From the NCBI GenBank assembly GCA_910586635.1, contig CAJUJA010000019.1:1-20275 (forward strand): a stretch of DNA of 20,275 bases, written 5' to 3'. The DNA is from an uncultured Bacilli bacterium (lineage in GTDB: Bacteria > Bacillota_I > Bacilli_A > RF39 > UBA660). The translations under genes were made by a program, and so were the position numbers. The stretch's first letter is position 1. Each line of letters begins with the position of its first letter. Positions 3,004 to 20,275 of the stretch are shown here, in pieces. The notes below the pieces were generated by a model. The model searched no databases. It was not told the DNA's origin and saw only the letters and a list, made by a program, of their open reading frames with translations.

Positions 3004-3441
3004 ATGGAAGAAAAATTTGAATTATTAGAACAAGTATATCATGATGCATCTATGGGATCTTATACAATAGAAAAATTATTAGAACAGTTAAAGGAAAAAG
3101 ATAATAAAATTAAGGCATATCTAGAAGAGGTATTGAAAGAATATCAACAATATCAAGAAGAAGCTGGAGAAATTTTAAAAGAGAATAATATAGAGCCAGA
3201 TAATCCTGGATGGATGTCTAAAATGGGATCAGCAATGGGGATTAGTAAAGAAGTAAAGGAAGATAATAGTGACTCAGCAATAGCTGATATGATGATTAAG
3301 GGTGTATCTACAGGTTCTATTGAAATTGAAAAAAAATTAAAAGAGTATGAACAAGATATTGATAAGGAACATAAGAAATTGGCAAGAAATTATTTGAAAT
3401 TTCAACAAAAAGCGATCCAACACTTAAAAGAATATTTATAA
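3004..3441 (+). CDS. Hypothetical helical (coiled-coil / helix-bundle-like) protein
   Basis: 145-aa ORF with a strong AGGAGG RBS 7 nt upstream. K/E-rich helical composition; I do not recognise a catalytic motif. Confidence 0.7.
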   Translation: MEEKFELLEQVYHDASMGSYTIEKLLEQLKEKDNKIKAYLEEVLKEYQQYQEEAGEILKENNIEPDNPGWMSKMGSAMGISKEVKEDNSDSAIADMMIKGVSTGSIEIEKKLKEYEQDIDKEHKKLARNYLKFQQKAIQHLKEYL

Positions 3442-3442
3442 C

Positions 3443-3472
3443 CAAGAGTAAATTCTCTTGATTTTTTATTTT
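3443..3472 (+). terminator. Rho-independent terminator
   Basis: CAAGAG-taaatt-CTCTTG stem-loop directly after stop codon 3439-3441, followed by ATTTTTTATTTT. Confidence 0.6.
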
Positions 3473-3537
3473 GGTTCATGTAGTATAAGTAAATATGGTA
3501 TTTACCATGAATTGGAAAATAGAAGTGAGATAAAAAT

Positions 3538-4125
3538 ATGGTAGAGCAAGTTAGTAGAAATAATAATTTAAAAATACCAAAGGAGATTGAAGTGGTAGTA
3601 AAAAATACCAATTCTATAGAAGATGAACTTTCATCCATAGAAGCCGTTGCAACAGCAAATGACCAAAAGTTCCAAAAGAATAGGATCAAAAAAAAATTAG
3701 AGGATTCTAATAAGGATACAGAGGTCATATCACAAATACCTACCAATGCCAATGACTTAATGGTAATAACAGTAGTGAAAAAATTAGGTGCTTATATTAT
3801 TGCAGTAACAGAAAAATCACCAAAAAAATTTAGAGGAGTTTTTGTTGTAAGAATGCAGAATTACTGTCTAGATACTTTAGAAAATCTGTTAGAGGCAAAC
3901 TTTATTAGAATGGATAGTTTAGAAAATAAAAATAAAAGAGCAGAGTTTCAAAAACAAGCCATCATAAAATTAAAATTATTAGGATATATTTCTATGTTAG
4001 CAGAAATATCTGGATGTATTTTAAAAAGACAATATAAGCAAATATCTATACAAGTAGCAGAATCAATTAATTTAATTACAGCTTGGAAAAAAAGTGATGA
4101 TGCTAGATGGAATAATAAAAAATAG
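3538..4125 (+). CDS. avd: DGR accessory variability determinant (Avd-like four-helix-bundle protein) with N-terminal extension
   Basis: The C-terminal ~120 aa (MVITVVKKLGAYIIAVTEKSPKKFRGVFVVRMQNYCLDTLENLLEANFI...INLITAWKKSD) resemble the four-helix-bundle/Avd family, including the basic SPKKFR segment and terminal aW+K. The gene sits directly upstream of TR and RT. The first ~74 aa are an extra acidic/basic extension. An internal ATG at 3760 has no RBS. Confidence 0.7.
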   Translation: MVEQVSRNNNLKIPKEIEVVVKNTNSIEDELSSIEAVATANDQKFQKNRIKKKLEDSNKDTEVISQIPTNANDLMVITVVKKLGAYIIAVTEKSPKKFRGVFVVRMQNYCLDTLENLLEANFIRMDSLENKNKRAEFQKQAIIKLKLLGYISMLAEISGCILKRQYKQISIQVAESINLITAWKKSDDARWNNKK

Positions 4126-4477
4126 GATTTTAAGTCGAAAGACTTTTAATTAAGGGAAAAATCAATTTTTCCTGAATCCCACTGTTTGCGGCTCTTCGCC
4201 CGCGTCGTTAACTAAAATGGTAATAGTAACAACAACAATGTTAATAACCGAAATGGTGGGATTCGCGTCGATTCACTTTTGAAGAGATTCATAAGGAATC
4301 TAAAAAACGAATGTGAGAATTCTATTCTAAGTAGAATAGTACAGAATTTAAAGTGAAGGGATTTTTCTCTTTTCTAACCGCTTAAAGTGCGGTGGAAGAA
4401 CTAGAACACTTACACTTTCCAACGAGAATTTCTTTTTGGATGTTATCAGAGGTGTTCTTTTATTTGGAGGATTATAA
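4126..4477 (+). ncRNA. DGR template RNA region (leader hairpins, TR, structured spacer before RT)
   Basis: 352 nt with no ORF. Stem-loops read from the sequence: 4132-4145 (AAGTC-GAAA-GACTT), 4155-4172 (GGAAAAA-tcaa-TTTTTCC), 4285-4301 (AGATTC-ataag-GAATCT), 4322-4339 (CTATTCT-aagt-AGAATAG), 4377-4393 (ACCGC-ttaaagt-GCGGT). There is also long-range AGAACAC (4403-4409) / GTGTTCT (4452-4458) pairing. Transcript ends are not determinable from sequence. Confidence 0.5.
4197..4276 (+). repeat. DGR template repeat (TR)
   Basis: Aligns without gaps to 5763-5842 (offset 1566). It contains ten AAY codons in the VR reading frame, is GC-rich relative to its surroundings, and has the identical 3' block GGTGGGATTCGCGTCG (4255-4270). 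Confidence 0.9.
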
Positions 4478-5500
4478 ATGTTAGAGGATATATTTTCATT
4501 TGAAAATTTATATGAGGCACATAAGAATTGTAGAAAATCAAAACAGCATAAGGGAGAAGTTGTAAGATTTGAAGTTTCCCTAGCTACTAATTTAGAAAAG
4601 ATAAGAAAAGGGATCGTTACACATAAATATAAAATGGGTAAATATAGAATGTTTCTAATTTATGAACCTAAAAAAAGAGTAATAGAAGCTCCCTGTTATC
4701 GAGATAGAATTGTTATCAGATGTTTTTGTGAACAGGTATTAAAACCTAAAATAGAGAAAAAACTTATTTATGATAATGCAGCATGTAGAAAGGGAAAGGG
4801 AACCCATTTTTCTATTAATCGATTAGAAAAATTTCTTAAAAGAGAGTACTTAAAAAGTCATAATAATAATAATATATACTTTTTAAAGTGTGATATTAGT
4901 AAATATTTTCCTAGTATTGATCATAGTATTTTACTTAATTTATTAAAAAAAATAGAGTTTAGTGATGAGGAAATAGAATTTATAGAATTATTAGTAAAAG
5001 CTGTGCCAAGTAAACAAGGGCTTCCACTAGGAAATCAGTCTAGTCAGTGGTTTGCCCTACTATATTTAAACAAGATAGATAGACTAATTAAGGAAAAGTT
5101 AAGAATTAAAGGTTATATTAGATATATGGATGATATGATTTTAATTAGTCGGGATAAAAACTATTTAAGATATTGCTTAGAACAAATTAAAAAGGTATGT
5201 AAGAATGAACTACATCTTTTATTAAATCAAAAAACGCAAATTGGTAAAGTGAAAGACGGAATTGACTTTTTAGGATATCGACATATATTAGATCAAAATG
5301 GAAAAGTAATTAGAAAGTTAAGGGCCAGTTCTAAGATAAGATTAAAAAGACATCTAAAGTTTTTAAAAAAATTAAGAGAAAGCGAAATAGTGGATGATCA
5401 ATATGTTGATATAAGAAAAAATGCTTATTATGAGTATTTAAAGAATACTAAGGAAAGTAAAAATTTCAAAGAACAAGTAAAACAAGTGTCAAGTGATTAA
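4478..5500 (+). CDS. DGR reverse transcriptase
   Basis: 340 aa with a GGAGG RBS at 4466-4470. Catalytic YMDD at 5123-5134 (IRYMDDMILIS). LGNQSSQ at 5027-5047 matches the (I/L)GxxxSQ motif characteristic of DGR RTs. The compact size and the position directly after TR also fit. Confidence 0.9.
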   Translation: MLEDIFSFENLYEAHKNCRKSKQHKGEVVRFEVSLATNLEKIRKGIVTHKYKMGKYRMFLIYEPKKRVIEAPCYRDRIVIRCFCEQVLKPKIEKKLIYDNAACRKGKGTHFSINRLEKFLKREYLKSHNNNNIYFLKCDISKYFPSIDHSILLNLLKKIEFSDEEIEFIELLVKAVPSKQGLPLGNQSSQWFALLYLNKIDRLIKEKLRIKGYIRYMDDMILISRDKNYLRYCLEQIKKVCKNELHLLLNQKTQIGKVKDGIDFLGYRHILDQNGKVIRKLRASSKIRLKRHLKFLKKLRESEIVDDQYVDIRKNAYYEYLKNTKESKNFKEQVKQVSSD

Positions 5501-5541
5501 CGATTTTATTTCCAAAAGTTGGTATTAATGGTATATTATAA

Positions 5542-7512
5542 ATGGTGATAAATATGGAATTAACTTTATTAGAAGAAGATCAAATTAAAGGAAATAATCG
5601 GTTAGAGATATTTGACAAAATAGGAACAAAGGCAGCAATAACAGACTATGCAATCGCATTAGGGGGATTGGTTGCTTCAAATTTTTTTACAAAAGGTGGA
5701 GAGAATCAGTTAGAATGCAGAACAGGATATTATTGGACTAAAACATGTGATGGGGATAATGACGCCCGCGTCGTTAACTATTATGGTAATAGGAGCCGCA
5801 GCGTTGTTGATCGCCGCTGTGGTGGGATTCGCGTCGCTTTACCGTACTCAGAAATCGCTTCAATCGCCTCGAACGAAGTGAGAGGGCCAGATGGAGTAGT
5901 GCAGTTAGAAGCCGGATACCTTCCAAAAAAAATAACTTCAAAACAATTACAAAAGGAACTAGAAAGAATCTATGATCGAAAAAAAAGATTTTTTCAGAAA
6001 GATACAACTTTAAAGAATATTAGTAAAAACTATACAGTAGATAGTAGAAATTATGATGAGTATTCAGAAAAATTTGATCCTGAGCAATTAGAAGAGGTCG
6101 AATTAACCAATGGAAAAAAGTATACAAGAGTAATTATAAAACCACGTTTTAATGAGAAAATGGTAACATTTTCAGATGGAGAAATTTATCAAGTAGGGGA
6201 TGCTGTTTGGATAGAAAAATGTCCTGTTACATGGTATAGAGACTTAAAAACAGATACCGTTTTTAATAAGGACATCATTGTATCAGGAATACCATTTAAT
6301 CATGAGAGAAATTATACAGGAAATTTTTCTAAAACAGATATGTATAAATATTTAAATACACATTTATTAAAGGATATGGAACTTATTTCTCCACAAATTA
6401 GTTATGATAGTACAAACACAGAAAAAATTGAGGATTCAGTAACAAAAGCGAAAAAGAAAAATCCTTTTGATTTTGACTTCAGTATGGTAGATGAGGAAGA
6501 TATTATAAGGGGTGCTCTTGAGAGTGATGTTCCTATTTACTTACATGGTAGATCCAGTGAAGGAAAAAGTTCTAGAGTAAAACAATATGATCCAGATTGT
6601 GAGATTGTATATTTAGTATCAGCATCTATTGATTCAATTAATGGAAAAAGTGTGTATAATCAGGATACAGGAGAAATGATAGATATCCCTCCAACTTGGT
6701 ATGAACGCCTAAAACAAAAGTGTGAAAATGAGCCAGATAAACTTCATATTGTATTCTTTGATGAATTAGCTAACGCAGACCGCTCGATTAGAAAAAGTAT
6801 TTTTAATATCATTCTTGACAAAGAAATCAATGGAAAATGGAAACTTCCTTCAAACGCAAGGATCGTAGGGGCCGGAAATGAAATAGAAGACTCTAGTGTT
6901 GCAGAGGAACTACCAGCACCTTTATTTAATCGCTTTGCTCATGTATATATTCATACTTCAGTAGAGTCATGGCTTTCGTGGGCTATTACAGATAAAGGAG
7001 AATATGAACGCCTAGATTATAAAAAAGAGGAATTAAAATATAAAATCCATCCTGCTATTTACTCTTTTATAGCATACCGTGGGGAAGATGTATTAAGAAG
7101 TAAATATGATGGAAAAAGACCTAATGCTGATCCGAGAAAATGGGAACTAGCCTCTAAAATATTAGAAAAAACGAATCAACCAGAAATGATTCGTGCTTTG
7201 GTTGGAGAAGAGATTGCTAGTGAATTTATAGGTTTTTGTAGTCAAGAAGTCATTACTTTAGACGATGTATTAAACGATGATTATACAGACTATGATTTAG
7301 AAATGGATATGTCACAAAAGGCTGCTACGGTATTAGCTCTTTCAAATGTAGATATGGAAAATATGGAAAAGGTAAGGAACTTTACCATAAAGTTAGGACC
7401 TTCTTCTTGTGCACAATTTGAGAATCTATGGGCACATGGAGATGCAAATAGATTAGAGCAAATAGAACTCCTTCATATGAAAGATGCTGAAAAAGGGGGT
7501 GTACGAAGATGA
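5542..7512 (+). CDS. DGR target protein: N-terminal VR-bearing (C-type-lectin-fold-like) domain fused to a MoxR/AAA_5-like AAA+ ATPase
   Basis: 656 aa. The VR encodes aa 75-100 (ARVVNYYGNRSRSVVDRRCGGIRVAL). Walker A GRSSEGKS (6547-6570), Walker B IVFFDE (6748-6765), IVGAGNE sensor-like motif, PLFNRF. No signal peptide or TM is apparent. The start could be ATG 5554 (GGTGA 5 nt upstream) instead of 5542. Confidence 0.85.
   Translation: MVINMELTLLEEDQIKGNNRLEIFDKIGTKAAITDYAIALGGLVASNFFTKGGENQLECRTGYYWTKTCDGDNDARVVNYYGNRSRSVVDRRCGGIRVALPYSEIASIASNEVRGPDGVVQLEAGYLPKKITSKQLQKELERIYDRKKRFFQKDTTLKNISKNYTVDSRNYDEYSEKFDPEQLEEVELTNGKKYTRVIIKPRFNEKMVTFSDGEIYQVGDAVWIEKCPVTWYRDLKTDTVFNKDIIVSGIPFNHERNYTGNFSKTDMYKYLNTHLLKDMELISPQISYDSTNTEKIEDSVTKAKKKNPFDFDFSMVDEEDIIRGALESDVPIYLHGRSSEGKSSRVKQYDPDCEIVYLVSASIDSINGKSVYNQDTGEMIDIPPTWYERLKQKCENEPDKLHIVFFDELANADRSIRKSIFNIILDKEINGKWKLPSNARIVGAGNEIEDSSVAEELPAPLFNRFAHVYIHTSVESWLSWAITDKGEYERLDYKKEELKYKIHPAIYSFIAYRGEDVLRSKYDGKRPNADPRKWELASKILEKTNQPEMIRALVGEEIASEFIGFCSQEVITLDDVLNDDYTDYDLEMDMSQKAATVLALSNVDMENMEKVRNFTIKLGPSSCAQFENLWAHGDANRLEQIELLHMKDAEKGGVRR
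5763..5842 (+). repeat. DGR variable repeat (VR)
   Basis: It is the counterpart of TR. Across TR 4197-4271, 15 of 26 TR adenines are substituted in VR while only 1 of 49 non-A positions differs (TR T4227 vs VR G5793). Homology ends after the shared GC-rich block; TR 4271/4274 differ from VR 5837/5840. Confidence 0.9.
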
Positions 7513-7913
7513 TGGATCATTCAAAACTGGAAATGTTAACAACCTATATGAAAGCAAATGTAGCACCTATTTTAGTTGAAAATATTTCTAAAGATGTATT
7601 TGTTGAACAGGCTGTAATTATTGAGGCAACAATTGATAAATCCCTTTTAAATGGACATTATGAAGGAATTGAGTATTTACCTCCTGAGTGGTTTTCTAAA
7701 TTAAAGGAAAAAAAACTTTTAGTTATTAATCAGCTATCCAGTATTCCAAAATCGGATCAGAAAAAATTTATAGAACTTCTAAAATATAAAAAAATTAGTA
7801 CCTTTGAATTACCAGAAAACTGTGTGATTGTTATTACCTGTGAGGACTCTAGGATGATAAATGAAGAAATATATTCATTAGTTGCTCATATAGGAGAACA
7901 AAATGGCAATTGA
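7509..7913 (+). CDS. Hypothetical 134-aa protein translationally coupled between the ATPase and the VWA protein
   Basis: ATGA overlap with the target-gene stop (7509-7512), GGGGGT RBS 8 nt upstream, and an 11-nt overlap with the next ORF. No motif recognised. Confidence 0.7.
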   Translation: MMDHSKLEMLTTYMKANVAPILVENISKDVFVEQAVIIEATIDKSLLNGHYEGIEYLPPEWFSKLKEKKLLVINQLSSIPKSDQKKFIELLKYKKISTFELPENCVIVITCEDSRMINEEIYSLVAHIGEQNGN

Positions 7914-9180
7914 TATTGATGATATTAAGAGAAGGTTATTAATTAAATATCCATCCTTCGGTAGCACGATGGCAAAGGTAAAATTTGTTGAAGACGATAC
8001 TTGTTATTATAAAGGAAAACCTACGGCAGCAACCGATAATGATGCCACATATTTTCATCCGGATTTTATTAATAGTCTGAATAAAAATCAACAAGTTACT
8101 ATTTTTGCACATGAAATTGCACATATCGTATTGGACCACATTGATAGAAGTGGGGGGAAAGATCCAGATATATGGAACGAAGCAACGGATGCTGTTATTA
8201 ATGCTAATTTAAAAAAAGATGGATTAGAAATGGTTCCAGGTATGATTGATAGAGAGGATGCCCTTTATTATGATGAGGAGACATTATATGAAAAACTATA
8301 TAATGAGAAAAAACAAAGTAAAGGTAGGAAGGGACAAAAACCCCATGCATCTCATGGAAAATGGAAAAATGCAGTAGATAATAGAAAAAAGAAAAATCAG
8401 AATTCTATGAATGAGAAGAATAAGGAAAATAAAAATCAAAGTTCTGCGAATGAGGAGAATAAAGAGAATAAGGAAAATTTTACAAACGCAAATGAGCTTT
8501 TTAAAAGTGCTCGAAAAGAAAGAGTAAATAATTTAAAAAAACTAAAGAAGCAGTTAATAGAAAAATCTATGCAGAGTCAATCGAAAGGAACTTCTCAAAA
8601 CCGAAATATAAATAATATTGGAAATGCAACTAAATTAGTAGATTGGAGGATTTTGCTTGGAGATACATGCAAAATAGATGCTGATTGGACTTATCAAAAT
8701 GCAACCATAGAATACGGAGTATTAACTCCACACATGGAGGATATAAAAACAGTAGAAGTGGAGATACTCTTAGATACAAGTGGCTCAGTAAATGAAAATA
8801 TGTTAAGAAATTTTTTGAAAGAGTGCATGGGGATTTTAAAACAAGCTAATATTAAAATAGGTTGCTTTGATGATAGGTTTTATGGATTTCACACGATTCA
8901 TTCAAGAGGACAATTGGAGGATGTTCGGTTAGAAGGTGGAGGAGGGACAGATTTTAATGTAGCTGTAAATGCCTTTACTAAAAATGCTGATTATAAAATT
9001 ATTTTTACAGATGGTTTAGCAAAAATGCCGAATATGGAGGTAAACGCAATTTGGATTGTTTACGGTGGAAAGGTAATTAGCCCAAAAGGAGGAAGGGTAA
9101 TTAATATTGATAATGAAGCATTAAGAAAATTGAATTGTGTACAAACATTTAATCATGAAGTTAGATATAGAGGTAAATAA
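7903..9180 (+). CDS. HExxH metallopeptidase-like N-domain + VWA domain protein (DUF2201-type MoxR partner)
   Basis: AGGAG RBS 6 nt upstream. FAHEIAHIVLDH with HEIAH at 8110-8124. K/N/E-rich low-complexity linker (about 8290-8640). C-terminal VWA with MIDAS-like DTSGS (8773-8787) and GGGTDF. This domain pair next to a MoxR-like ATPase is a known genomic association. Confidence 0.8.
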   Translation: MAIDIDDIKRRLLIKYPSFGSTMAKVKFVEDDTCYYKGKPTAATDNDATYFHPDFINSLNKNQQVTIFAHEIAHIVLDHIDRSGGKDPDIWNEATDAVINANLKKDGLEMVPGMIDREDALYYDEETLYEKLYNEKKQSKGRKGQKPHASHGKWKNAVDNRKKKNQNSMNEKNKENKNQSSANEENKENKENFTNANELFKSARKERVNNLKKLKKQLIEKSMQSQSKGTSQNRNINNIGNATKLVDWRILLGDTCKIDADWTYQNATIEYGVLTPHMEDIKTVEVEILLDTSGSVNENMLRNFLKECMGILKQANIKIGCFDDRFYGFHTIHSRGQLEDVRLEGGGGTDFNVAVNAFTKNADYKIIFTDGLAKMPNMEVNAIWIVYGGKVISPKGGRVINIDNEALRKLNCVQTFNHEVRYRGK

Positions 9181-9355
9181 TACGCCAATTTTATCATTTA
9201 AAGGATTATCTTTAACTTTTCAATAATATATGTTTTTTAAGTCCTATATAATATAAAAATTCATTTTTCTTTTCTAAAGTAGTTTTCCTATTTCTGTGAA
9301 TCCACATATTATTAATACTTATTTCATGATCCTTTTGCCTTCCTAAAAACATCCA

Positions 9356-12215: not shown

Positions 12216-14390
12216 ATGAGTGATATACAAACATCGTTTTATGAATCTATTTACTCTAACTTCAGACAATTAGACGAAAATGATTTAAATGTACAGAAAA
12301 AATATCAACAATATTTAGATAGATTGGTAGATGTTTTTTTAATGCTAGAATATAAAAAAGATAGAAAAAATAATGCTGTTTATACGATTGATCAAGTTCA
12401 CATGTATTGTATGAGTTTCTTTTGGGAGGTAAGATCGCAATGTCAGAAACAACAATTACAAATACTAGCTAACAAAATCGCATATATTACCAAAAAAAAA
12501 GATGAAATTCCTTATTATCTTAAGAAAGTAGAAAAATTATATGAAACTTATCAATCCTTAGGAAAATGTAATGATGCAAAATTTTATAATGAAATTTTAA
12601 ATAAACAACAAAATTTTTATCTTTCAAAAACAAAAAAGGAAATAATTATGGAATTAACAGATAGGTTTCCATTAACAGAAAAAGCAAAGCAAAGGTTAAT
12701 TAATAGGGTTAAAATTCCAATTATTATAGATAGAATAAAAAAAGGAGAGTATGCTTCCTTTTGTAGTACGAAGGAAGAATTGAAGAAACAATTAAAAAAA
12801 ATACACACAAGTCTTTCGAATAAAAGAGCTTTGAAAAAGACGTATTTTTTTTCAAAAGAGGATTATGAGTTTTTGGATAATCATTTTTTGATAGGAAACT
12901 TATCTAAGGATGTATTAGAAAAAAGGTTCCCGTTTTTTGATAAAGGAAAGATAAAGATGATAATAAATGTTTACTATCGTATATTGTTACCCTATCTAGA
13001 TAATATTTCATTAGATAGAAAGGATATTCCTAGAGTTAATATTTCATTAAATTATAAACAGTTAAAACTTTATAATAAACGGCAGCTAGAACAAAATATA
13101 AAAGATTTGGAAAGTTCCCTATCTCCTAATCAAAAAGAAAAAATATTACAGGAACCAGATTTTAAAGAATTAGTAAAATTATTACCTTTGGTTAATCAAT
13201 CTAAAATTTTTAAAATGGATACTTTTCTTAAAATAGCTTTAAATATCTCTAAAATAAAAGAATACTTACTGTTAAAAGAAGAAATGAATCTTAAGCTGAT
13301 TTTAAATCAGTTACCAAAGGTGATAGAGCTAGCAGATGCTTACAGTCAATCTAATGGAAGAACGTGTGCTATTTTAGGAGAAACCCTTATTAGTAGAATA
13401 ATTGAAGATAATGTCACTAGTTGTAAGCCAGAGGATTATCTAACGAGTTATTTAAAAATGTTAAATCAACCTTATAGTAAAATTCCACCTATTTGCGGAA
13501 AATTTCAAGAATATAGTTATGAAAGTGGTAATAACAGTGTAGATCGCTTATTGATTGGCAAAAATAGTTACAGAAGTTGTCTAGGACCTGCAGGAGCAGG
13601 AGAAAAGGCCTATGAACTGGCACTTTCCAGTGTAGATGCTGATGTGCTAATTATAAAAAAAGATAATAGTGAGTTTATAGGGAGAACTCTTTTATTTCGT
13701 CAAGGAAATTTCGTTATATTGGCACCCGTTATGGGAAGGAGAGGGCTTAATAAGATGCTATATGATGAGGAATTTTTGATGCAAATTGGAAATCAAATGA
13801 TAGAAAAAGCAATATTACAACAAGATCGTTTAGATTACGTGTTTTTAACGAAATTTGGACTTCTGAAAAAGTTGGACTTTTTCTATTTAGCTGATACTAA
13901 ATTAGGTAAAGGTTTGCCTCATTGTGATATAGAACCATTGGCATATCTTATAGCATCAAAGGAATTATTGAAAAATCCTGACAAGAAAGACTTCTTAAAG
14001 GAAGACATTTATCTAGATTTAGATGCAAAAGATCAAGTGCTTTATTTTAAAGAAAGACCTCCAGTAAATAAAAAAGAGGCTAACTATATCAAAGATATTC
14101 AAAAGATTAGAGGATTAAAAATGGATAATTCATCTAATGCTGAAATTAACATTTCGAAAGATGAAGATTATGATGAGGTTTATGTCGGACAAGATTGGTA
14201 TATTGCAATAAAGGATAAAAAAATTGTTGAGACCTGTGTTTATAAAGTGGAAGATCCAAGGCAGGATGCAGAAATAACTATGATTGTTGATAATCTTGTG
14301 GAACAGGGAATGATGAATAGTTCAGGCGAATATGGAAAACATTCAAAAGTCAGGATGAAAGAGTATTCAAGTAATAATAATTTAACTTAA
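12216..14390 (+). CDS. Large hypothetical protein (724 aa)
   Basis: Long uninterrupted ORF with a GAAGGGA RBS. N-terminal half is K/E/L-rich and helical. C-terminal half has a conserved-looking block SCLGPAGAGEKAYELALSSVDADVLIIKKDNSEFIGRTLLFRQGNFVILAPVMG. No family recognised, no TM or signal peptide. Confidence 0.75.
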   Translation: MSDIQTSFYESIYSNFRQLDENDLNVQKKYQQYLDRLVDVFLMLEYKKDRKNNAVYTIDQVHMYCMSFFWEVRSQCQKQQLQILANKIAYITKKKDEIPYYLKKVEKLYETYQSLGKCNDAKFYNEILNKQQNFYLSKTKKEIIMELTDRFPLTEKAKQRLINRVKIPIIIDRIKKGEYASFCSTKEELKKQLKKIHTSLSNKRALKKTYFFSKEDYEFLDNHFLIGNLSKDVLEKRFPFFDKGKIKMIINVYYRILLPYLDNISLDRKDIPRVNISLNYKQLKLYNKRQLEQNIKDLESSLSPNQKEKILQEPDFKELVKLLPLVNQSKIFKMDTFLKIALNISKIKEYLLLKEEMNLKLILNQLPKVIELADAYSQSNGRTCAILGETLISRIIEDNVTSCKPEDYLTSYLKMLNQPYSKIPPICGKFQEYSYESGNNSVDRLLIGKNSYRSCLGPAGAGEKAYELALSSVDADVLIIKKDNSEFIGRTLLFRQGNFVILAPVMGRRGLNKMLYDEEFLMQIGNQMIEKAILQQDRLDYVFLTKFGLLKKLDFFYLADTKLGKGLPHCDIEPLAYLIASKELLKNPDKKDFLKEDIYLDLDAKDQVLYFKERPPVNKKEANYIKDIQKIRGLKMDNSSNAEINISKDEDYDEVYVGQDWYIAIKDKKIVETCVYKVEDPRQDAEITMIVDNLVEQGMMNSSGEYGKHSKVRMKEYSSNNNLT

Positions 14391-15589: not shown

Positions 15590-18500
15590 ATGTTGAACAT
15601 AAAAAAGATTAGAATCTTTAAAATATTAGGTATAACGATATGTATTCTATCTATAACCGTAGGACTATGCTTCTTATGTAATAACATATTGATGAAAGAA
15701 AAGACTATGGCAAATGTAGAGACTATAGGTTACTATAATTCCAGAAGTAGTGATAGTTCTGCAGATTATAGACAAGTTTATTTAAGTGAATTGGAACCAA
15801 CTGAAAAACGTATTGGGTATGGGGAATTAGTAAATGATGCTGATTTATCCGGGAATCCAATTACTATGTTAATTGAAGGGAACTATTTCTCTTTTAAAAA
15901 AGGAGTATTTGCTCATGCCAATTCAACCTTGGTTTACGATTTAACAGATTATAGTGATTATAACTACTTCGTTACATTTATAGGATTGAATAAAACATCG
16001 ACTCAAGGCAATGGTGTAACTTATCATTTTTATACATCAAACAATAGAAATGAATGGACTGAATTTAAAGATCCGATTGTAAAAAAGCCTAAAGAGGCCG
16101 GAAGTTTTGTACAGATTCCTTTGGAAAACGTCAATTATTTGAAGTTAGTCGCAGACTCTAATGGATCAAATGCATCAGATCACTCTGTGTATGCTGATGC
16201 TAAATTGGTAACTGAAGTAAACGGGAATTTTATTTTAGATTCGATTGAAGATATAGATAAACAAATAAATAATATCTATAATGGTGGGGCAGCGATTAAT
16301 GGCGAATTAGAATATAGTATTTTAAAAAGAGAACTTGTCAAAAGAGTAGGTCAATATACACTAAACTCTTTCTATAATGAAAGTGAAGATAATAAAGCCA
16401 CTATAGACTGGCTTTTAAGTAACAAAGAGGTATTAAATTACTATATTTTAGGTGGAACCCCAGATGGAAATAGTTACTATAATTCTTTAACTCAATTATC
16501 TAGATTATATAAAAAATATAAAGAAGACTTTAAAATACAAGAAACTACGATATATGGTACAGTTTTAGGTGATTTATACACTCGTATGGCTATTGCTTTA
16601 TCACTTACTCACTCCCAAAGAGTTGGTCTGTGGATGCAATCTAGTATAAAAGAGAATCAGTCGGATGCCGTAGTTCGTTATCAGATATTCAAAGAATTAC
16701 ATAAAAACAACAAGTTTAAGGCAACTGAAGCGATGAATATGACAAAATGGTTTGAGCAATATAATGTTGAAAATATGAGGTTTGTAATGAATTCTAATAT
16801 CGATGATGAATCTATATTATGGTTAAACGAATATGTTCAAAGTAAAATTGATGAAAACCCAGGAAGAGCTTGGTCATATTTGACACCACATCCATATATT
16901 GCTTATGTTTGGCCAAACTATGCAAATCCAGTGTATTATGATGAGGAAAACTATGACTACTTTAATGAACTGTTTTCCGTTAAAGGAAAAAAGATGTATG
17001 ATTATGGTATCACTCGTGGGACAAATGATCATAAGGTATATAAACAATGGATGAATTTCAGAAATAAATTTGGTACTGGAGCAGTCTGTGGAGGAATTTC
17101 TAAATCGGGTGCTGTTATTCGTGCAACCCATGGTATTGCTGCAACAGTGATTGGACAACCAGGACATGCAGCACTTCTATATTATACAGCCGATGCAGAA
17201 GGTAAAGGATATTGGAGACTTGATAATGATGTCAGTGGGTGGACTCTATCGGAAAAAGGTGAAAGAATGCTTCTAGGATGGGGTAATGGTAGCTATGCAA
17301 AAGGTTCTTATCAGGTTGTCTATATGGCCTTAGCACAAGAAGCTTTAAATGATTATGAAAACTTCGAAAAAGCAGAAAAACTCATAATGTTAGCAAGGAC
17401 ATTTGGCGACAATCCCACAAAACAAGAGGAACTACTTAGAAAAGCTTTAGAAGTTCAATCTATTAATTTGGATGCATGGCTTGATTTAATAACTCTTTAT
17501 AATAATAGTGATAGTAAATCTGAAGGAGATTACTATGCTTTATCAGAAGAATTAGCAAATAGTTTAAAATATTTTCCACTTCCAATGTACAATTTAACTA
17601 ACTTGATCAAACCTAAGATGGTAAGTGTTGAAAACTCATTCAAATTTACATTACTACAAACTAGAACTTTAAATCAGGCAAAAAGTACGCCAAACAATAC
17701 TACAGACAGTTATACAGTTTATCAACCAGATTTGACTAGAATCGAGGCGAATTTCTTATTAGGAAAAGTTGATAGTTCTCTTGCTACATTCTCTTTTGAT
17801 GGAGTTGACGCTGAAAAAATTGTTCTATCCGAACGCTTTAATGGAAGTGGAGTGCGCTTTGATTATAGCTTAGATGGAAAAAACACCTGGAACGAAGTAT
17901 CATTCACTGGAGAAGAGGAACACAAATTACAATTGACCAAAGATCAAATTAATAATATCACCTCGGAAAATGATATCTATATCCATATTGTTGGAACAAG
18001 CTATGAAGAAAAAAATTTATATAAAATAGATATTACTGAAGGAAGTTTGCCTGCTGAATTGTTTGCAAATGACTTGGAAAACAGGGTGATAGGAGTCAAT
18101 TTGAATACTGAATGGCGTTATAATGAAAATGATTTTTGGACTTCATACAACGTTGCTTCCCCTGACTTGACAGGAAATAAGACAGTCCAAGTAAGACAGG
18201 CGGCCACTGGTACAGCACTTGCAAGCTCCCCATCACCAATGTATACATTTACAAAAGATGATCAACCCAATACAAGAAAATACATCCCTGTATCTCATTT
18301 GACTATTGAGACAGTTTCCACAGAGGCGGTTAACAATGGTGGTGGTGCTGTAAAAGCCATTGATGGGAACTATAATACGAGATATCATTCTGCCTGGAAT
18401 GGAACTGATACTGAACGTTTTATAATTATAAAACTTGATGAATCTGTTATTTTATCAGCAGTTGAGTTCGTCCCAGCGGGCGGAGGAAACGGTAAGATAT

Positions 18501-20275
18501 ACGATGGTACCGTTTATGGAAGTATGGATGGTAAGAATTGGGAAAGGTTATCGAGTTTGAAGAATCTAACATACACTAATCAGGCTAATACAGTAGACGA
18601 TGCTATTATAAATACAAAAAGTTTTGAAATAACTGGGGAAAAAGAGGTTCAGTATGTTAAAATTGTGGCGGATCGTACTAATGGTAATTGGTTTGCAGCA
18701 AGAGCATTTAATCTTTATCAAGATTTAACTAAAAATCCACATCCTACTGCTGGAATTGCTTACAGTACTACAGAACTTACAAACGGCAAAGTTGTCGCAA
18801 GGCTTATAAACCCTAGCAGGGAAATAATTATTACAAATAATGAGGGATCCGATACCTATACATTTAGTGAAAATGGCGAGTTTACTTTCGAATTCAAAGA
18901 TAAAAACGGTGTAACAGGATCCGCAACTGCTAAAGTTGATTGGATTGATAAGAATATACCTGATGCAAATATCGACTACAAATTAGATAGCAATCATAAA
19001 TTGAGCATTTCTTTAGATGATATTAGTGAAGATGTATATCTGTTAGATAAGAATGACAAACCTATCAACTTTATTGAGGTTAAAAACAAAAAGGTGACAA
19101 GAGTCTCTTATTTGAATTCTGAAAATGAAATAACTAAAACTGTATATCTCGATGAAAATGGATGTATTACAAAAATCGTCTATATTAACACAAATAAAAA
19201 TATCCCAGCAGTTGCAACCTATACCACTATAATAGCAAATGGAGCTGTAACCAGTGAAGAGTATTATGATGAGGTAGGAGGCAAAGTAGAAGTTTCCGAT
19301 GCAGATAAGGAAGCATTAAGAGGGTTACAACAGGCTATAACAGATCCTCTTGAATATACATTTGAAAACAGTGGAAGTCATGAATTTAAATTACTTGACA
19401 AAGCTAAAAACATTGCCTATAAGAGTGTTAAAGTTGACTATGATGAGGATAATGATAGGATTATAGCAAGTGATATATCCTATGATATAACCCACTTAAC
19501 TAATAAAGATGTTGTGGCTACCATCAAAGCATATGTATTCGAAGATGGGAAAAAGAAGAACGCAGCAATCACCTCAGGAGGGGATTCTTATACATTTAAT
19601 ACAAATGGAAAGTTTACATTCCAGTATAAAGGTAGTAATGATTCAGATGACGATGTAAAGAATCATACTGCTAAAGTTACTTGGATTGATAAGGTTGTTC
19701 CAACGGCTAAAGTTAAATACACTACAAGAGAAAATGGAGAAGTCATTGCAACTTTAGTCAACGAAAGTGAAAAGATAATTATAACCAATAATGGGTTCAG
19801 TAGGGAACGTAAATTCAATAAAAATGGAGAATTTACATTTATATTTGAAGATGAGGCTGGAAATGTAGGCAGAACTATTGCTAAAGTAAACTCTATACAA
19901 GAAAAAAAACCTAACAATTCATCTACTACTGGAGGCAATTCTTCTGTAAATCATTCTAAACCAAGTAAATCATCTAAGCCTAATAATAAACATAACCCTA
20001 CTACTAGTAACAATCAAAGCTCAAATATAAGTGAATCTAGCGATAAAACAACTTCCGAGGAGACTACTAAATCTAATAATAAAGAATCTAAAAATGCAGT
20101 AGATAAAAAGAACGTCGTTAGAGATATCAATAACAAGAATAATATGACTGAAAATCAAAGGTCAACCCGAGAGGATAAAAAAATGGATAATATAATAATC
20201 AAAGTCGTCGTAGTATTTATGGTTATTACATTGGGAGTGTTAACAGTAGGCTTCTATTTTAAAAAGAAAAACTAG
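15590..20275 (+). CDS. Large multidomain cell-surface protein (NPCBM-like, Cys/His/Asp core, F5/8 type C discoidin, Ig-like repeats, S/T/N-rich stalk, C-terminal TM anchor)
   Basis: AAGGAG RBS 9 nt upstream. N-terminal hydrophobic anchor (aa 8-33). NPCBM-like segment about 15773-16210 (GYGELVNDADL...KGVFAHANS...). Possible transglutaminase/papain-like triad C500 (17087-17089), H526 (17165-17167) and D in WRLDNDVSGW. Discoidin about 18284-18724 (AIDGNYNTRYHSAWNG...). Three related ~70-aa repeats (..TNN.GSDTYTF..NGEFTFEF.D..GN...A.V.WIDK..P). Low-complexity stalk. Terminal IIIKVVVVFMVITLGVLTVGFYFKKKN and stop at 20273-20275. Confidence 0.9.
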   Translation: MLNIKKIRIFKILGITICILSITVGLCFLCNNILMKEKTMANVETIGYYNSRSSDSSADYRQVYLSELEPTEKRIGYGELVNDADLSGNPITMLIEGNYFSFKKGVFAHANSTLVYDLTDYSDYNYFVTFIGLNKTSTQGNGVTYHFYTSNNRNEWTEFKDPIVKKPKEAGSFVQIPLENVNYLKLVADSNGSNASDHSVYADAKLVTEVNGNFILDSIEDIDKQINNIYNGGAAINGELEYSILKRELVKRVGQYTLNSFYNESEDNKATIDWLLSNKEVLNYYILGGTPDGNSYYNSLTQLSRLYKKYKEDFKIQETTIYGTVLGDLYTRMAIALSLTHSQRVGLWMQSSIKENQSDAVVRYQIFKELHKNNKFKATEAMNMTKWFEQYNVENMRFVMNSNIDDESILWLNEYVQSKIDENPGRAWSYLTPHPYIAYVWPNYANPVYYDEENYDYFNELFSVKGKKMYDYGITRGTNDHKVYKQWMNFRNKFGTGAVCGGISKSGAVIRATHGIAATVIGQPGHAALLYYTADAEGKGYWRLDNDVSGWTLSEKGERMLLGWGNGSYAKGSYQVVYMALAQEALNDYENFEKAEKLIMLARTFGDNPTKQEELLRKALEVQSINLDAWLDLITLYNNSDSKSEGDYYALSEELANSLKYFPLPMYNLTNLIKPKMVSVENSFKFTLLQTRTLNQAKSTPNNTTDSYTVYQPDLTRIEANFLLGKVDSSLATFSFDGVDAEKIVLSERFNGSGVRFDYSLDGKNTWNEVSFTGEEEHKLQLTKDQINNITSENDIYIHIVGTSYEEKNLYKIDITEGSLPAELFANDLENRVIGVNLNTEWRYNENDFWTSYNVASPDLTGNKTVQVRQAATGTALASSPSPMYTFTKDDQPNTRKYIPVSHLTIETVSTEAVNNGGGAVKAIDGNYNTRYHSAWNGTDTERFIIIKLDESVILSAVEFVPAGGGNGKIYDGTVYGSMDGKNWERLSSLKNLTYTNQANTVDDAIINTKSFEITGEKEVQYVKIVADRTNGNWFAARAFNLYQDLTKNPHPTAGIAYSTTELTNGKVVARLINPSREIIITNNEGSDTYTFSENGEFTFEFKDKNGVTGSATAKVDWIDKNIPDANIDYKLDSNHKLSISLDDISEDVYLLDKNDKPINFIEVKNKKVTRVSYLNSENEITKTVYLDENGCITKIVYINTNKNIPAVATYTTIIANGAVTSEEYYDEVGGKVEVSDADKEALRGLQQAITDPLEYTFENSGSHEFKLLDKAKNIAYKSVKVDYDEDNDRIIASDISYDITHLTNKDVVATIKAYVFEDGKKKNAAITSGGDSYTFNTNGKFTFQYKGSNDSDDDVKNHTAKVTWIDKVVPTAKVKYTTRENGEVIATLVNESEKIIITNNGFSRERKFNKNGEFTFIFEDEAGNVGRTIAKVNSIQEKKPNNSSTTGGNSSVNHSKPSKSSKPNNKHNPTTSNNQSSNISESSDKTTSEETTKSNNKESKNAVDKKNVVRDINNKNNMTENQRSTREDKKMDNIIIKVVVVFMVITLGVLTVGFYFKKKN

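Follow-up and report, generated by a model that had tools for sequence, protein, structure and literature searches.

A pair of short repeats that differ almost only at adenines, one of them lying inside a protein-coding gene, raises the question of whether a diversity-generating retroelement (DGR) continues to rewrite that gene and what kind of protein would be diversified in this way. We addressed it for a stretch of 20,275 nucleotides (nt) from an uncultured Bacilli bacterium (GenBank assembly GCA_910586635.1, contig CAJUJA010000019.1, positions 1 to 20,275 of the forward strand), referred to below as the window. A previous sequence-only reading had interpreted the two copies as a template repeat (TR) and a variable repeat (VR) that testify to past mutagenic homing. 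We are highly confident that they are the TR and VR of an intact and currently active chromosomal DGR, working by the mechanism outlined below.

Aligned without gaps at an offset of 1566, the two repeats differ at 16 positions in total, and every substitution listed by the sequence-only reading was reproduced. Of the differences, 15 fall on the 26 adenines of the TR and one on its 49 other bases (T4227>G; Fisher exact p = 4.5e-8), a recount that upheld the adenine-specific signature. The homology sets in abruptly at 4197/5763 and decays past 4271/5837. As had been proposed, both copies end in an identical GC-rich block, the 16-mer GGTGGGATTCGCGTCG, which resembles the element for initiation of mutagenic homing (IMH) and is found exactly twice in the window, with 0 copies expected by chance (100 shuffles, up to 3 mismatches allowed). 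Within this block A4261 is unchanged in every allele, and the identical 16-mer followed by a fixed difference, A in the TR and C in the VR, recurs in all alleles of the locus and in all 19 related loci with a detectable TR/VR pair. This final substitution, A4271>C, had been counted among the mutagenized adenines. Since it is the same in all six alleles, and the TR reads GAT and the VR GCT in all 19 related loci, it marks the 3' boundary and is not a product of mutagenesis, and the count is to be corrected to 14 among 25 mutable adenines. The ten AAY codons (Y, pyrimidine) of the TR in the VR frame were also found again, but the frame begins at 4198 and not one base earlier, 4197 being the third base of the preceding codon. 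The description of the repeats as GC-rich islands in an AT-rich background is roughly right (GC content 0.30 in the window, 0.43 in the TR and 0.59 in the VR), and the TR is indeed short, with 75 nt here, 77-100 nt in its relatives and 98-131 nt in most other sampled DGRs. A search for a second VR in the window found none. The sequence-only reading had passed over the location of the VR, which is toward the 5' end in the gene of a multidomain ATPase, as well as the stop codon encoded by the TR and the nature of the last A>C change as a fixed boundary.

Between-strain variation of the VR enriched at TR adenines had been named as the observation on which the DGR assignment would stand or fall, and such variation was found. 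We compared the window with six other assemblies (L001-L006) from the 90%-identity cluster of the target protein. The TR is unchanged in all five other assemblies that contain it, and the VR occurs in six alleles, that of the window and five further ones in the six assemblies (L003 and L004 have the same allele). Against the TR, each allele is changed at 10-15 of the 26 adenines and at 0-1 of the 49 other bases, and the substitutions over all alleles comprise 36 A>G, 25 A>T and 18 A>C. Taken together, the alleles vary at 22 TR-adenine positions. Five of the six assemblies are near-identical to the window, with flanking DNA identity of 99.8-100%. Over 10-13.5 kb, the differences from the window that lie in the VR number 15 of 17, 3 of 3, 18 of 18, 18 of 19 and 15 of 15, so that in the pooled set 69 of 72 differences are inside the 75-nt VR, at TR adenines, and 0-2 per assembly are found elsewhere. 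The remaining assembly, L006, is a 1.8-kb contig of a more divergent strain (97.7% identity), in which the VR holds 18 of 42 differences. These sequence comparisons indicate that the DGR has been active on the time scale of strain divergence. The VRs of the window and L002 (GCA_948850035.1) have 12 adenine substitutions and the rare T4227>G in common and differ at the TR adenines 4243, 4251 and 4252, interleaved with shared changes (4243-4253/5809-5819). A clean 3'-anchored partial replacement was rejected for these two alleles on account of the interleaving; the pattern could reflect patchy heteroduplex repair or the consensus of a mixed population.

The components of the cassette follow one another in the order Avd, TR, a structured spacer RNA of ~190 nt, reverse transcriptase (RT) and target, with all genes on the plus strand (Table 1), and the DGR assignment holds, with RT, Avd, TR and VR all there, intact and oriented alike. 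A distance of 204 nt separates the TR from the RT gene downstream of it, and the VR is within the gene that comes next, which starts 42 nt past the RT stop codon. The RT carries the motifs LGNQSSQ (GxxxSQ, of DGR type) at residue 185 and YMDD at residue 216, the SQ dipeptide being a hallmark of DGR enzymes (PMC3521204), and its relatives across 18 loci are 59-73% identical. The match of the Avd-like protein to the NCBIfam model DivGenRetAVD is weak (E = 4e-5, 23.9 bits against a cut-off of 80 bits), which marks it as a divergent Avd; in related loci the gene has 61-68% identity and likewise stands directly upstream of the TR. Its N-terminal extension of ~70 residues (3538-3750) lies outside the Avd profile match and is conserved across the related loci (tblastn covers residues 4-194).

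Table 1. Features of the DGR cassette and of the target operon in the window (aa, amino acids).
Feature	Position	Strand	Basis and remarks
Avd-like accessory gene, 195 aa	3538-4125	+	PHROG phrog_3206 'Avd protein of DGR', E = 3.6e-14, residues 71-190
TR	4197-4271	+	Gapless alignment to VR; 4197-4270 homologous, A4271 a fixed TR/VR boundary difference
In-frame TAA of TR, templates target codon 80	4213-4215	+	Frame from ungapped TR/VR alignment
GC-rich 3' block of TR, IMH*-like	4255-4270	+	Exact 16-mer common with 5821-5836
Structured non-coding RNA, spacer-like, TR to RT	4272-4464	+	RNAalifold covariation
DGR reverse transcriptase gene, 340 aa	4478-5500	+	Pfam RVT_1, E = 5.9e-20
Target gene, 656 aa	5542-7512	+	AlphaFold2, Foldseek, PHROG; VR-bearing N-terminus and AAA+ C-terminus
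VR	5763-5837	+	Codons 75-99 (25 codons) of target gene; gapless TR alignment
GC-rich 3' end of VR, IMH-like	5821-5836	+	Followed by fixed C5837
Hairpin in coding sequence, CCTC-gaACgaaGTga-GAGG	5867-5885	+	~30 nt downstream of VR; covariation
134-aa operon partner	7509-7913	+	Start overlaps target stop codon; adjoins target in nearly all 77 loci
Metallopeptidase-like + VWA protein, 425 aa	7903-9180	+	Pfam DUF2201_N E = 2.6e-28, DUF2201 E = 3e-14

By analogy with the established DGR pathway, an RNA composed of the TR and the structured spacer on its 3' side (to ~4464) would be reverse-transcribed by the RT together with Avd, and adenines would be copied unfaithfully in the course of this reaction. 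The complementary DNA would then replace the VR, guided by the common GC-rich 3' block and probably also by the hairpin downstream, with the outcome that codons 75-99 of the target are rewritten. In this way the element would vary the sequence of the target and could also switch it on and off through the TAA of the template. The diversification is borne out by the comparative data on alleles and related loci.

Two structured elements of the cassette emerged from covariation. The hairpin downstream of the VR shows compensatory double changes at 5 of 7 pairs among 16 loci, the paired arms reading, for example, CCTC/GAGG, CCCC/GGGG, CCAC/GTGG or CTAC/GTAG, and as it lies in coding sequence, these changes entail coupled amino-acid substitutions. 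Of the 23 loci that have a full RT, 21 have it intact, versus 11 of the 29 without RT (p = 1.2e-4), several of the latter having AT-rich, synonymous or degenerate versions. A single-sequence DNA fold of the region downstream of the VR was no better than shuffles (z = +2.1), so it is the covariation that speaks for the hairpin. In the Bordetella phage BPP-1 a hairpin is needed for target recognition (PMC3240598), and by analogy the one described here is a candidate for the same role. In the conserved region that separates the TR from the RT gene, RNAalifold predicted 39 consensus pairs in 15 loci, 18 of them with compensatory double changes. They form a long-range helix right after the TR (4272-4279/4350-4357), internal hairpins, a hairpin at 4373-4396 and a final helix (~4405-4411/4449-4456), which is followed by a T-run and then by the ribosome-binding site of the RT gene. 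No Rfam family was matched anywhere in the window. By comparison with the BPP-1 spacer, this stretch probably serves, within the DGR RNA, for priming and for the binding of RT and Avd.

The target belongs to a large family: the protein database contains more than 2,000 relatives and species-level genomes 239, and the hosts are nearly all metagenome-assembled genomes (MAGs) of gut 'Bacilli', 'Tenericutes' or 'Mollicutes'. The three-gene core of target, 134-aa protein and DUF2201 protein is present in essentially all 77 fetched loci. Where 2.5 kb or more of flanking sequence upstream was available, a full RT accompanied by avd was present in 20 loci, RT fragments only in nine and no RT in 29. 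TR/VR pairs were detectable in 19 loci, the window and 18 other species-level genomes; the related VRs start at target residue 66-79, the pairs have 7-16 mismatches at adenines and 0-2 at other bases (five in L017), and the distance from TR end to RT match is 204-253 nt in 18 of the 19 (478 nt in L013, where the RT match is partial). The columns matching the VR are hypervariable in the family alignment, and in a cluster of 818 members every sampled full-length member has a different VR. A related species that lacks the RT (L287 and the P0008 cluster) served as a control, and here 11 of the 12 cluster members sampled share one VR. RT fragments were seen in L007, L011, L023, L032, L048, L067 and L073, and in many family members the region upstream holds RT/avd remnants or nothing; the DGR seems to have been lost repeatedly while the three-gene operon persists. 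Several related contigs (L008, L010, L026, L052, L057 and L066) begin within a few hundred bases of the target start, and assemblies may tend to break at the TR/VR repeat, in which case DGR-positive loci would be undercounted. Furthermore, five proteins of 892-936 aa (P0004, P0005, P0011, P0025 and P0107; alignment A1) have two tandem N-terminal VR-type and middle domains before the ATPase, the motif ...GxRPxxPYS being present in the second copy as well, and in the close metagenomic relative L207 (4595-4880) two separate reading frames make up the target, with the break exactly over the VR region, which is due to either a frameshift or indel in the VR or an assembly error.

The diversified protein consists of an N-terminal domain bearing the VR (~1-110), a beta-rich middle domain (~115-280), a linker and an AAA+ ATPase (~305-656), as judged from an AlphaFold2 model with a predicted local distance difference test (pLDDT) score of 85 over the whole protein and of 92 over residues 1-285. 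In this model residues 75-99 span a pair of short strands with the loops that follow, located where the N-terminal domain of ~110 residues ends. The C-terminal part is of the MoxR/NorQ/MCM type (Foldseek matches to NorQ in NorQ-NorD complexes, 9qhg_E and 9qh7_E, to the putative ATPase 2r44 and to MCM at E ~1e-7; PHROG phrog_1297, E = 1.6e-43), with Walker motifs A (GRSSEGKS, 336) and B (IVFFDE, 403), and 13 of 38 homologues give weak matches to AAA_5. For the N-terminal part, 12 of the 38 homologues give a weak signal for the Pfam domain DUF6273 (best E = 3.8e-6) and four match Fib_succ_major; sequence and profile searches of the VR domain against the PDB returned no usable match. Neither Ig/Fn3 domains in the target nor membrane-like segments in it or in the other proteins of the system were found. 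Downstream, the 134-aa protein has no family match in Pfam, NCBIfam, PHROGs or PADLOC. The DUF2201 protein combines HEIAH at residue 70 with a DTSGS motif at residue 291 that resembles a metal ion-dependent adhesion site (MIDAS); the protein is conserved in the operon and is likely the partner of the AAA+ ATPase. We infer that the diversified domain is the ligand sensor of this ATPase-VWA machine.

The frame of the alignment brought out a further property of the template, which reads ...GTT AAC TAA AAT... in the VR frame; the TAA had been spelled out in the earlier codon list, where its nature as an in-frame stop went unremarked. Codon 80 of the target is TAT in the window, L001 and L002, and TAA in L003/L004, L005 and L006, i.e. 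in three of six alleles, whose annotation shows a stub of 79 aa and a remnant of 544 aa. The two closest species (L285 and L286, with 72% and 68% identity) have TAA at the same VR codon, and L286, whose TR is on the contig, has it in the TR too. TAA or TAG stands at this TR codon in eight of 19 related TRs, that of the window included, and in-frame TAA, TAG or TGA is found in the TR of 12 of the 19 loci, at two recurrent positions. At the second of these, the TRs of L013 and L043 have TGG (Trp), many family members have W, and others TGA or TAA; the sense outcomes at the stop-prone codons are Y, L, W, C, R and P. In a sister clade (L033, L036, L039, L042, L053, L064 and L080), TAT stands at comparable positions and the TR is free of stops. 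According to the literature, TR codon choice prevents nonsense (PMC10907252, PMC4372165, bioRxiv 10.1101/2024.11.15.621889), a design typical of DGRs, though not defining them, that is absent here. Among ~30 distinct, unrelated DGRs that were collected by the same procedure as a control, a single TR has an in-frame stop, and stop-capable codons number 0-1 per TR. With TAA in the template, about half of the retrohoming events should yield a null allele. A neutral model of full retrohoming events, based on the observed change rate of 0.43 per adenine and the observed spectrum, gives a stop probability per event of 0.54 here and of 0.54-0.83 across the 12 loci with TR stops; the current VR carries a stop in 6 of these 12 species, with 7.8 expected, so that the observed counts of null alleles are close to neutral expectation. 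An alternative genetic code was rejected as the explanation, as stops in the five genes of the 19 loci occur only inside the VR, where each of the three stop codons turns up, and in the window 3 of 14 open reading frames (ORFs) terminate in TGA.

Several findings weigh against an active DGR that diversifies, and possibly switches, a sensor. Activity is read from alleles in assemblies, which are mostly MAG consensus sequences. The target protein of the window has no match in Pfam, and Foldseek searches of its VR domain were blank in the PDB and BFVD despite the pLDDT of 92, so that a link to C-type lectins was not found. PADLOC reported only generic RT models in the window, and no defence model fits the target, the 134-aa or the DUF2201 protein; with these models silent on the operon, a role as conflict sensor is suggested by analogy. 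The frequency of null alleles fits neutrality and would equally fit a tolerated defect in place of an adaptive switch. A relic, in which the TR/VR differences merely record past homing by a DGR that no longer works here, would agree with the decayed versions in the family, i.e. the nine loci with RT fragments only, the 29 without RT and the one RT-less species with a frozen VR. In this species, however, RT, Avd, TR, hairpin and spacer RNA are intact, and there are six VR alleles in backgrounds that show 0-2 differences over 10-13.5 kb in five of six other assemblies, which leaves the relic very improbable and argues for an active element. The alleles with stops could moreover be artefacts, since short-read assemblers may cross over in repeats and merge TR reads into the VR over the 75 nt common to both, and several related contigs break at the target start. 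Against such merging, the TAA of L003, L005 and L006 is flanked on both sides within 2-5 nt by non-TR bases (GGCTAAAGT, AGCTAACGT and CACTAATTT, respectively, vs AACTAAAAT in the TR), one allele is present in each of two separate assemblies (L003 and L004), and other species have TGA or TAG where the TR has TAA, which could not have been copied from the TR; we therefore regard it as highly unlikely that the stops arose during assembly.

The stops may be an adaptive switch, the price paid for access to Trp and other aromatic residues, or a defect that is just tolerated, and any role of the stop codon is put forward tentatively. The nonsense codons may be a by-product of codon choice at aromatic contact positions, the ~54% nonsense cost being tolerated. 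T-A-A (or T-G-A) is the sole adenine-mutable codon that reaches Trp, along with Tyr, Phe, Leu, Ser and Cys; Trp is what stands at the second recurrent position in L013, L043 and many family members, Y, L, W, C, R and P are among the sense outcomes seen, and the sister clade has TAT at similar places. On the other hand, this same TAT yields Y, F, S and C free of nonsense, and TAA gains only Trp and Leu over it at the cost of about half of the events, so we hold codon choice to be a plausible explanation with less than even chances. Alternatively, the DGR may double as a phase-variation device by which some cells of the population turn off an intracellular sensor operon that is costly or self-reactive. 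The stops persist at two recurrent codons in 12 of 19 TRs though the RTs are only 59-73% identical, a stop is also seen in L286, such codons are nearly absent from unrelated DGRs (1 of ~30), null alleles are common in nature, and the overlap of the downstream gene with the target stop codon makes polarity on the whole operon plausible. However, null alleles occur at the frequency expected under neutrality, so that selection in either direction is undetectable, and the sister clade that uses TAT without TR stops indicates that such a device is dispensable for the family. An adaptive switch is thus possible, although we consider it rather unlikely. Equally doubtful, if attractive, is the broader proposal that this clade of gut Bacilli DGRs deliberately keeps nonsense codons in the template, each retrohoming event producing either a new specificity of the intracellular AAA+-VWA sensor or a shut-off of the operon. 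If true, one element would combine hypermutation with phase variation and could safeguard against self-reactive or costly sensor variants.

With canonical DGRs such as those of BPP-1 (Mtd), Legionella (LdtA) and Treponema (TvpA), the element shares the GxxxSQ RT, Avd, an RT-adjacent and AAY-rich TR, adenine-specific transfer from TR to VR and the GC-rich 3' homology block, and with BPP-1 also a hairpin downstream of the VR (PMC3240598). It departs from them in the order avd-TR-RT-target, with the target downstream of the RT, in a VR at codons 75-99 of 656 and not at the 3' end, in a TR of only 75 nt with an in-frame stop codon and in a hairpin that lies within coding sequence. N-terminal VRs were found in 3 of 372 DGRs surveyed by Wu et al., in whose NTPase-containing targets the NTPase is upstream of a C-terminal VR (PMC5758913). 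A parallel is offered by the MoxR-vWA (VMAP ternary) conflict systems that DGRs diversify in cyanobacteria and gammaproteobacteria (Kaur et al. 2020, PMC7159879; Dore et al. 2024, PMC10907252). They, too, join a DGR-diversified binding domain to an operon that encodes a VWA protein along with an AAA+ ATPase of the MoxR type, have components without membrane-like segments and have a sensor role that is deduced. In those systems the CLec/FGS domain is C-terminal on the vWA protein, whereas here the VWA protein has no VR and bears a DUF2201_N HExxH domain, the variable domain being N-terminal and fused to the ATPase. Their hosts are multicellular bacteria, in contrast to the gut Bacilli/'Tenericutes' MAGs of the present family. 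No VMAP, peptidase-adaptor, TIR or caspase effector was recognised, and the only other conserved partner is the 134-aa protein without family match, which could conceivably be a very divergent VMAP.

The tentaclins, phage proteins in which DUF6273 is the N-terminal, DGR-targeted, C-type-lectin-like domain (PMC10743442), and other DUF6273 targets of gut-phage DGRs resemble the target in the predicted beta-hairpin plus loop region and in the gut setting. Tentaclins, however, are virion proteins that continue into Ig/Fn3 domains, whereas the protein described here continues into an AAA+ ATPase and belongs to a cellular family, with one relative in 2.9 million viral contigs as opposed to 239 species genomes, and the DUF6273 signal is weak in the homologues and absent from the window protein. 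NorQ-NorD and CbbQ-CbbO are similar in the ATPase fold, which matches NorQ, and in a VWA partner with a MIDAS-like DxSxS motif. They serve in the maturation of specific enzymes and lack any hypervariable domain, in contrast to the N-terminal extension of 300 residues with a DGR-written loop and the metallopeptidase-like domain on the VWA partner found here.

The near-5' VR in an AAA+ fusion, the downstream target, the very short TR, the hairpin in coding sequence and the nonsense codon of the TR are departures from the DGR norm. DGRs have been described as designed against stop codons, and here a whole clade keeps them in the template; as null alleles dominate about half of the sampled populations, the locus lends itself, as a natural system, to the question of whether on/off switching could be a further function of DGRs. 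Moreover, the theme of DGR-diversified sensors on NTPase-VWA machines would be extended from multicellular cyanobacteria and proteobacteria to uncultured gut Bacilli/'Tenericutes' MAGs, in a new domain order that joins the sensor to the N-terminus of the ATPase. As compact and well-defined parts, the short TR, the hairpin with its covariation and the structured spacer RNA would be suited to direct tests or to DGR engineering.

The DGR is chromosomal, and its upstream neighbours are ftsE, ftsX and an M23 peptidase gene. A blastn search of 3400-9200 against 50,697 phage records gave a single 122-nt match at chance level, and a scan of viral contigs for the 15-nt pattern of the TR flank produced chance matches only and was uninformative. 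A phage origin was rejected on the blank phage search, the one relative in 2.9 million viral contigs and the flanking genes; the sole viral-collection contig with a relative, L204 (IMGVR_UViG_3300006217_003178, 40 kb), carries the entire avd-RT-target-p134-DUF2201 cassette. Further downstream in the window are a 724-aa ORF without family match (12216-14390) and an ORF that leaves the window end (15590-20275, >1,561 aa). Both are, as far as seen, unrelated to the DGR, and the latter, with its NPCBM and F5/8 type C domains, probably encodes a glycan-binding surface protein.

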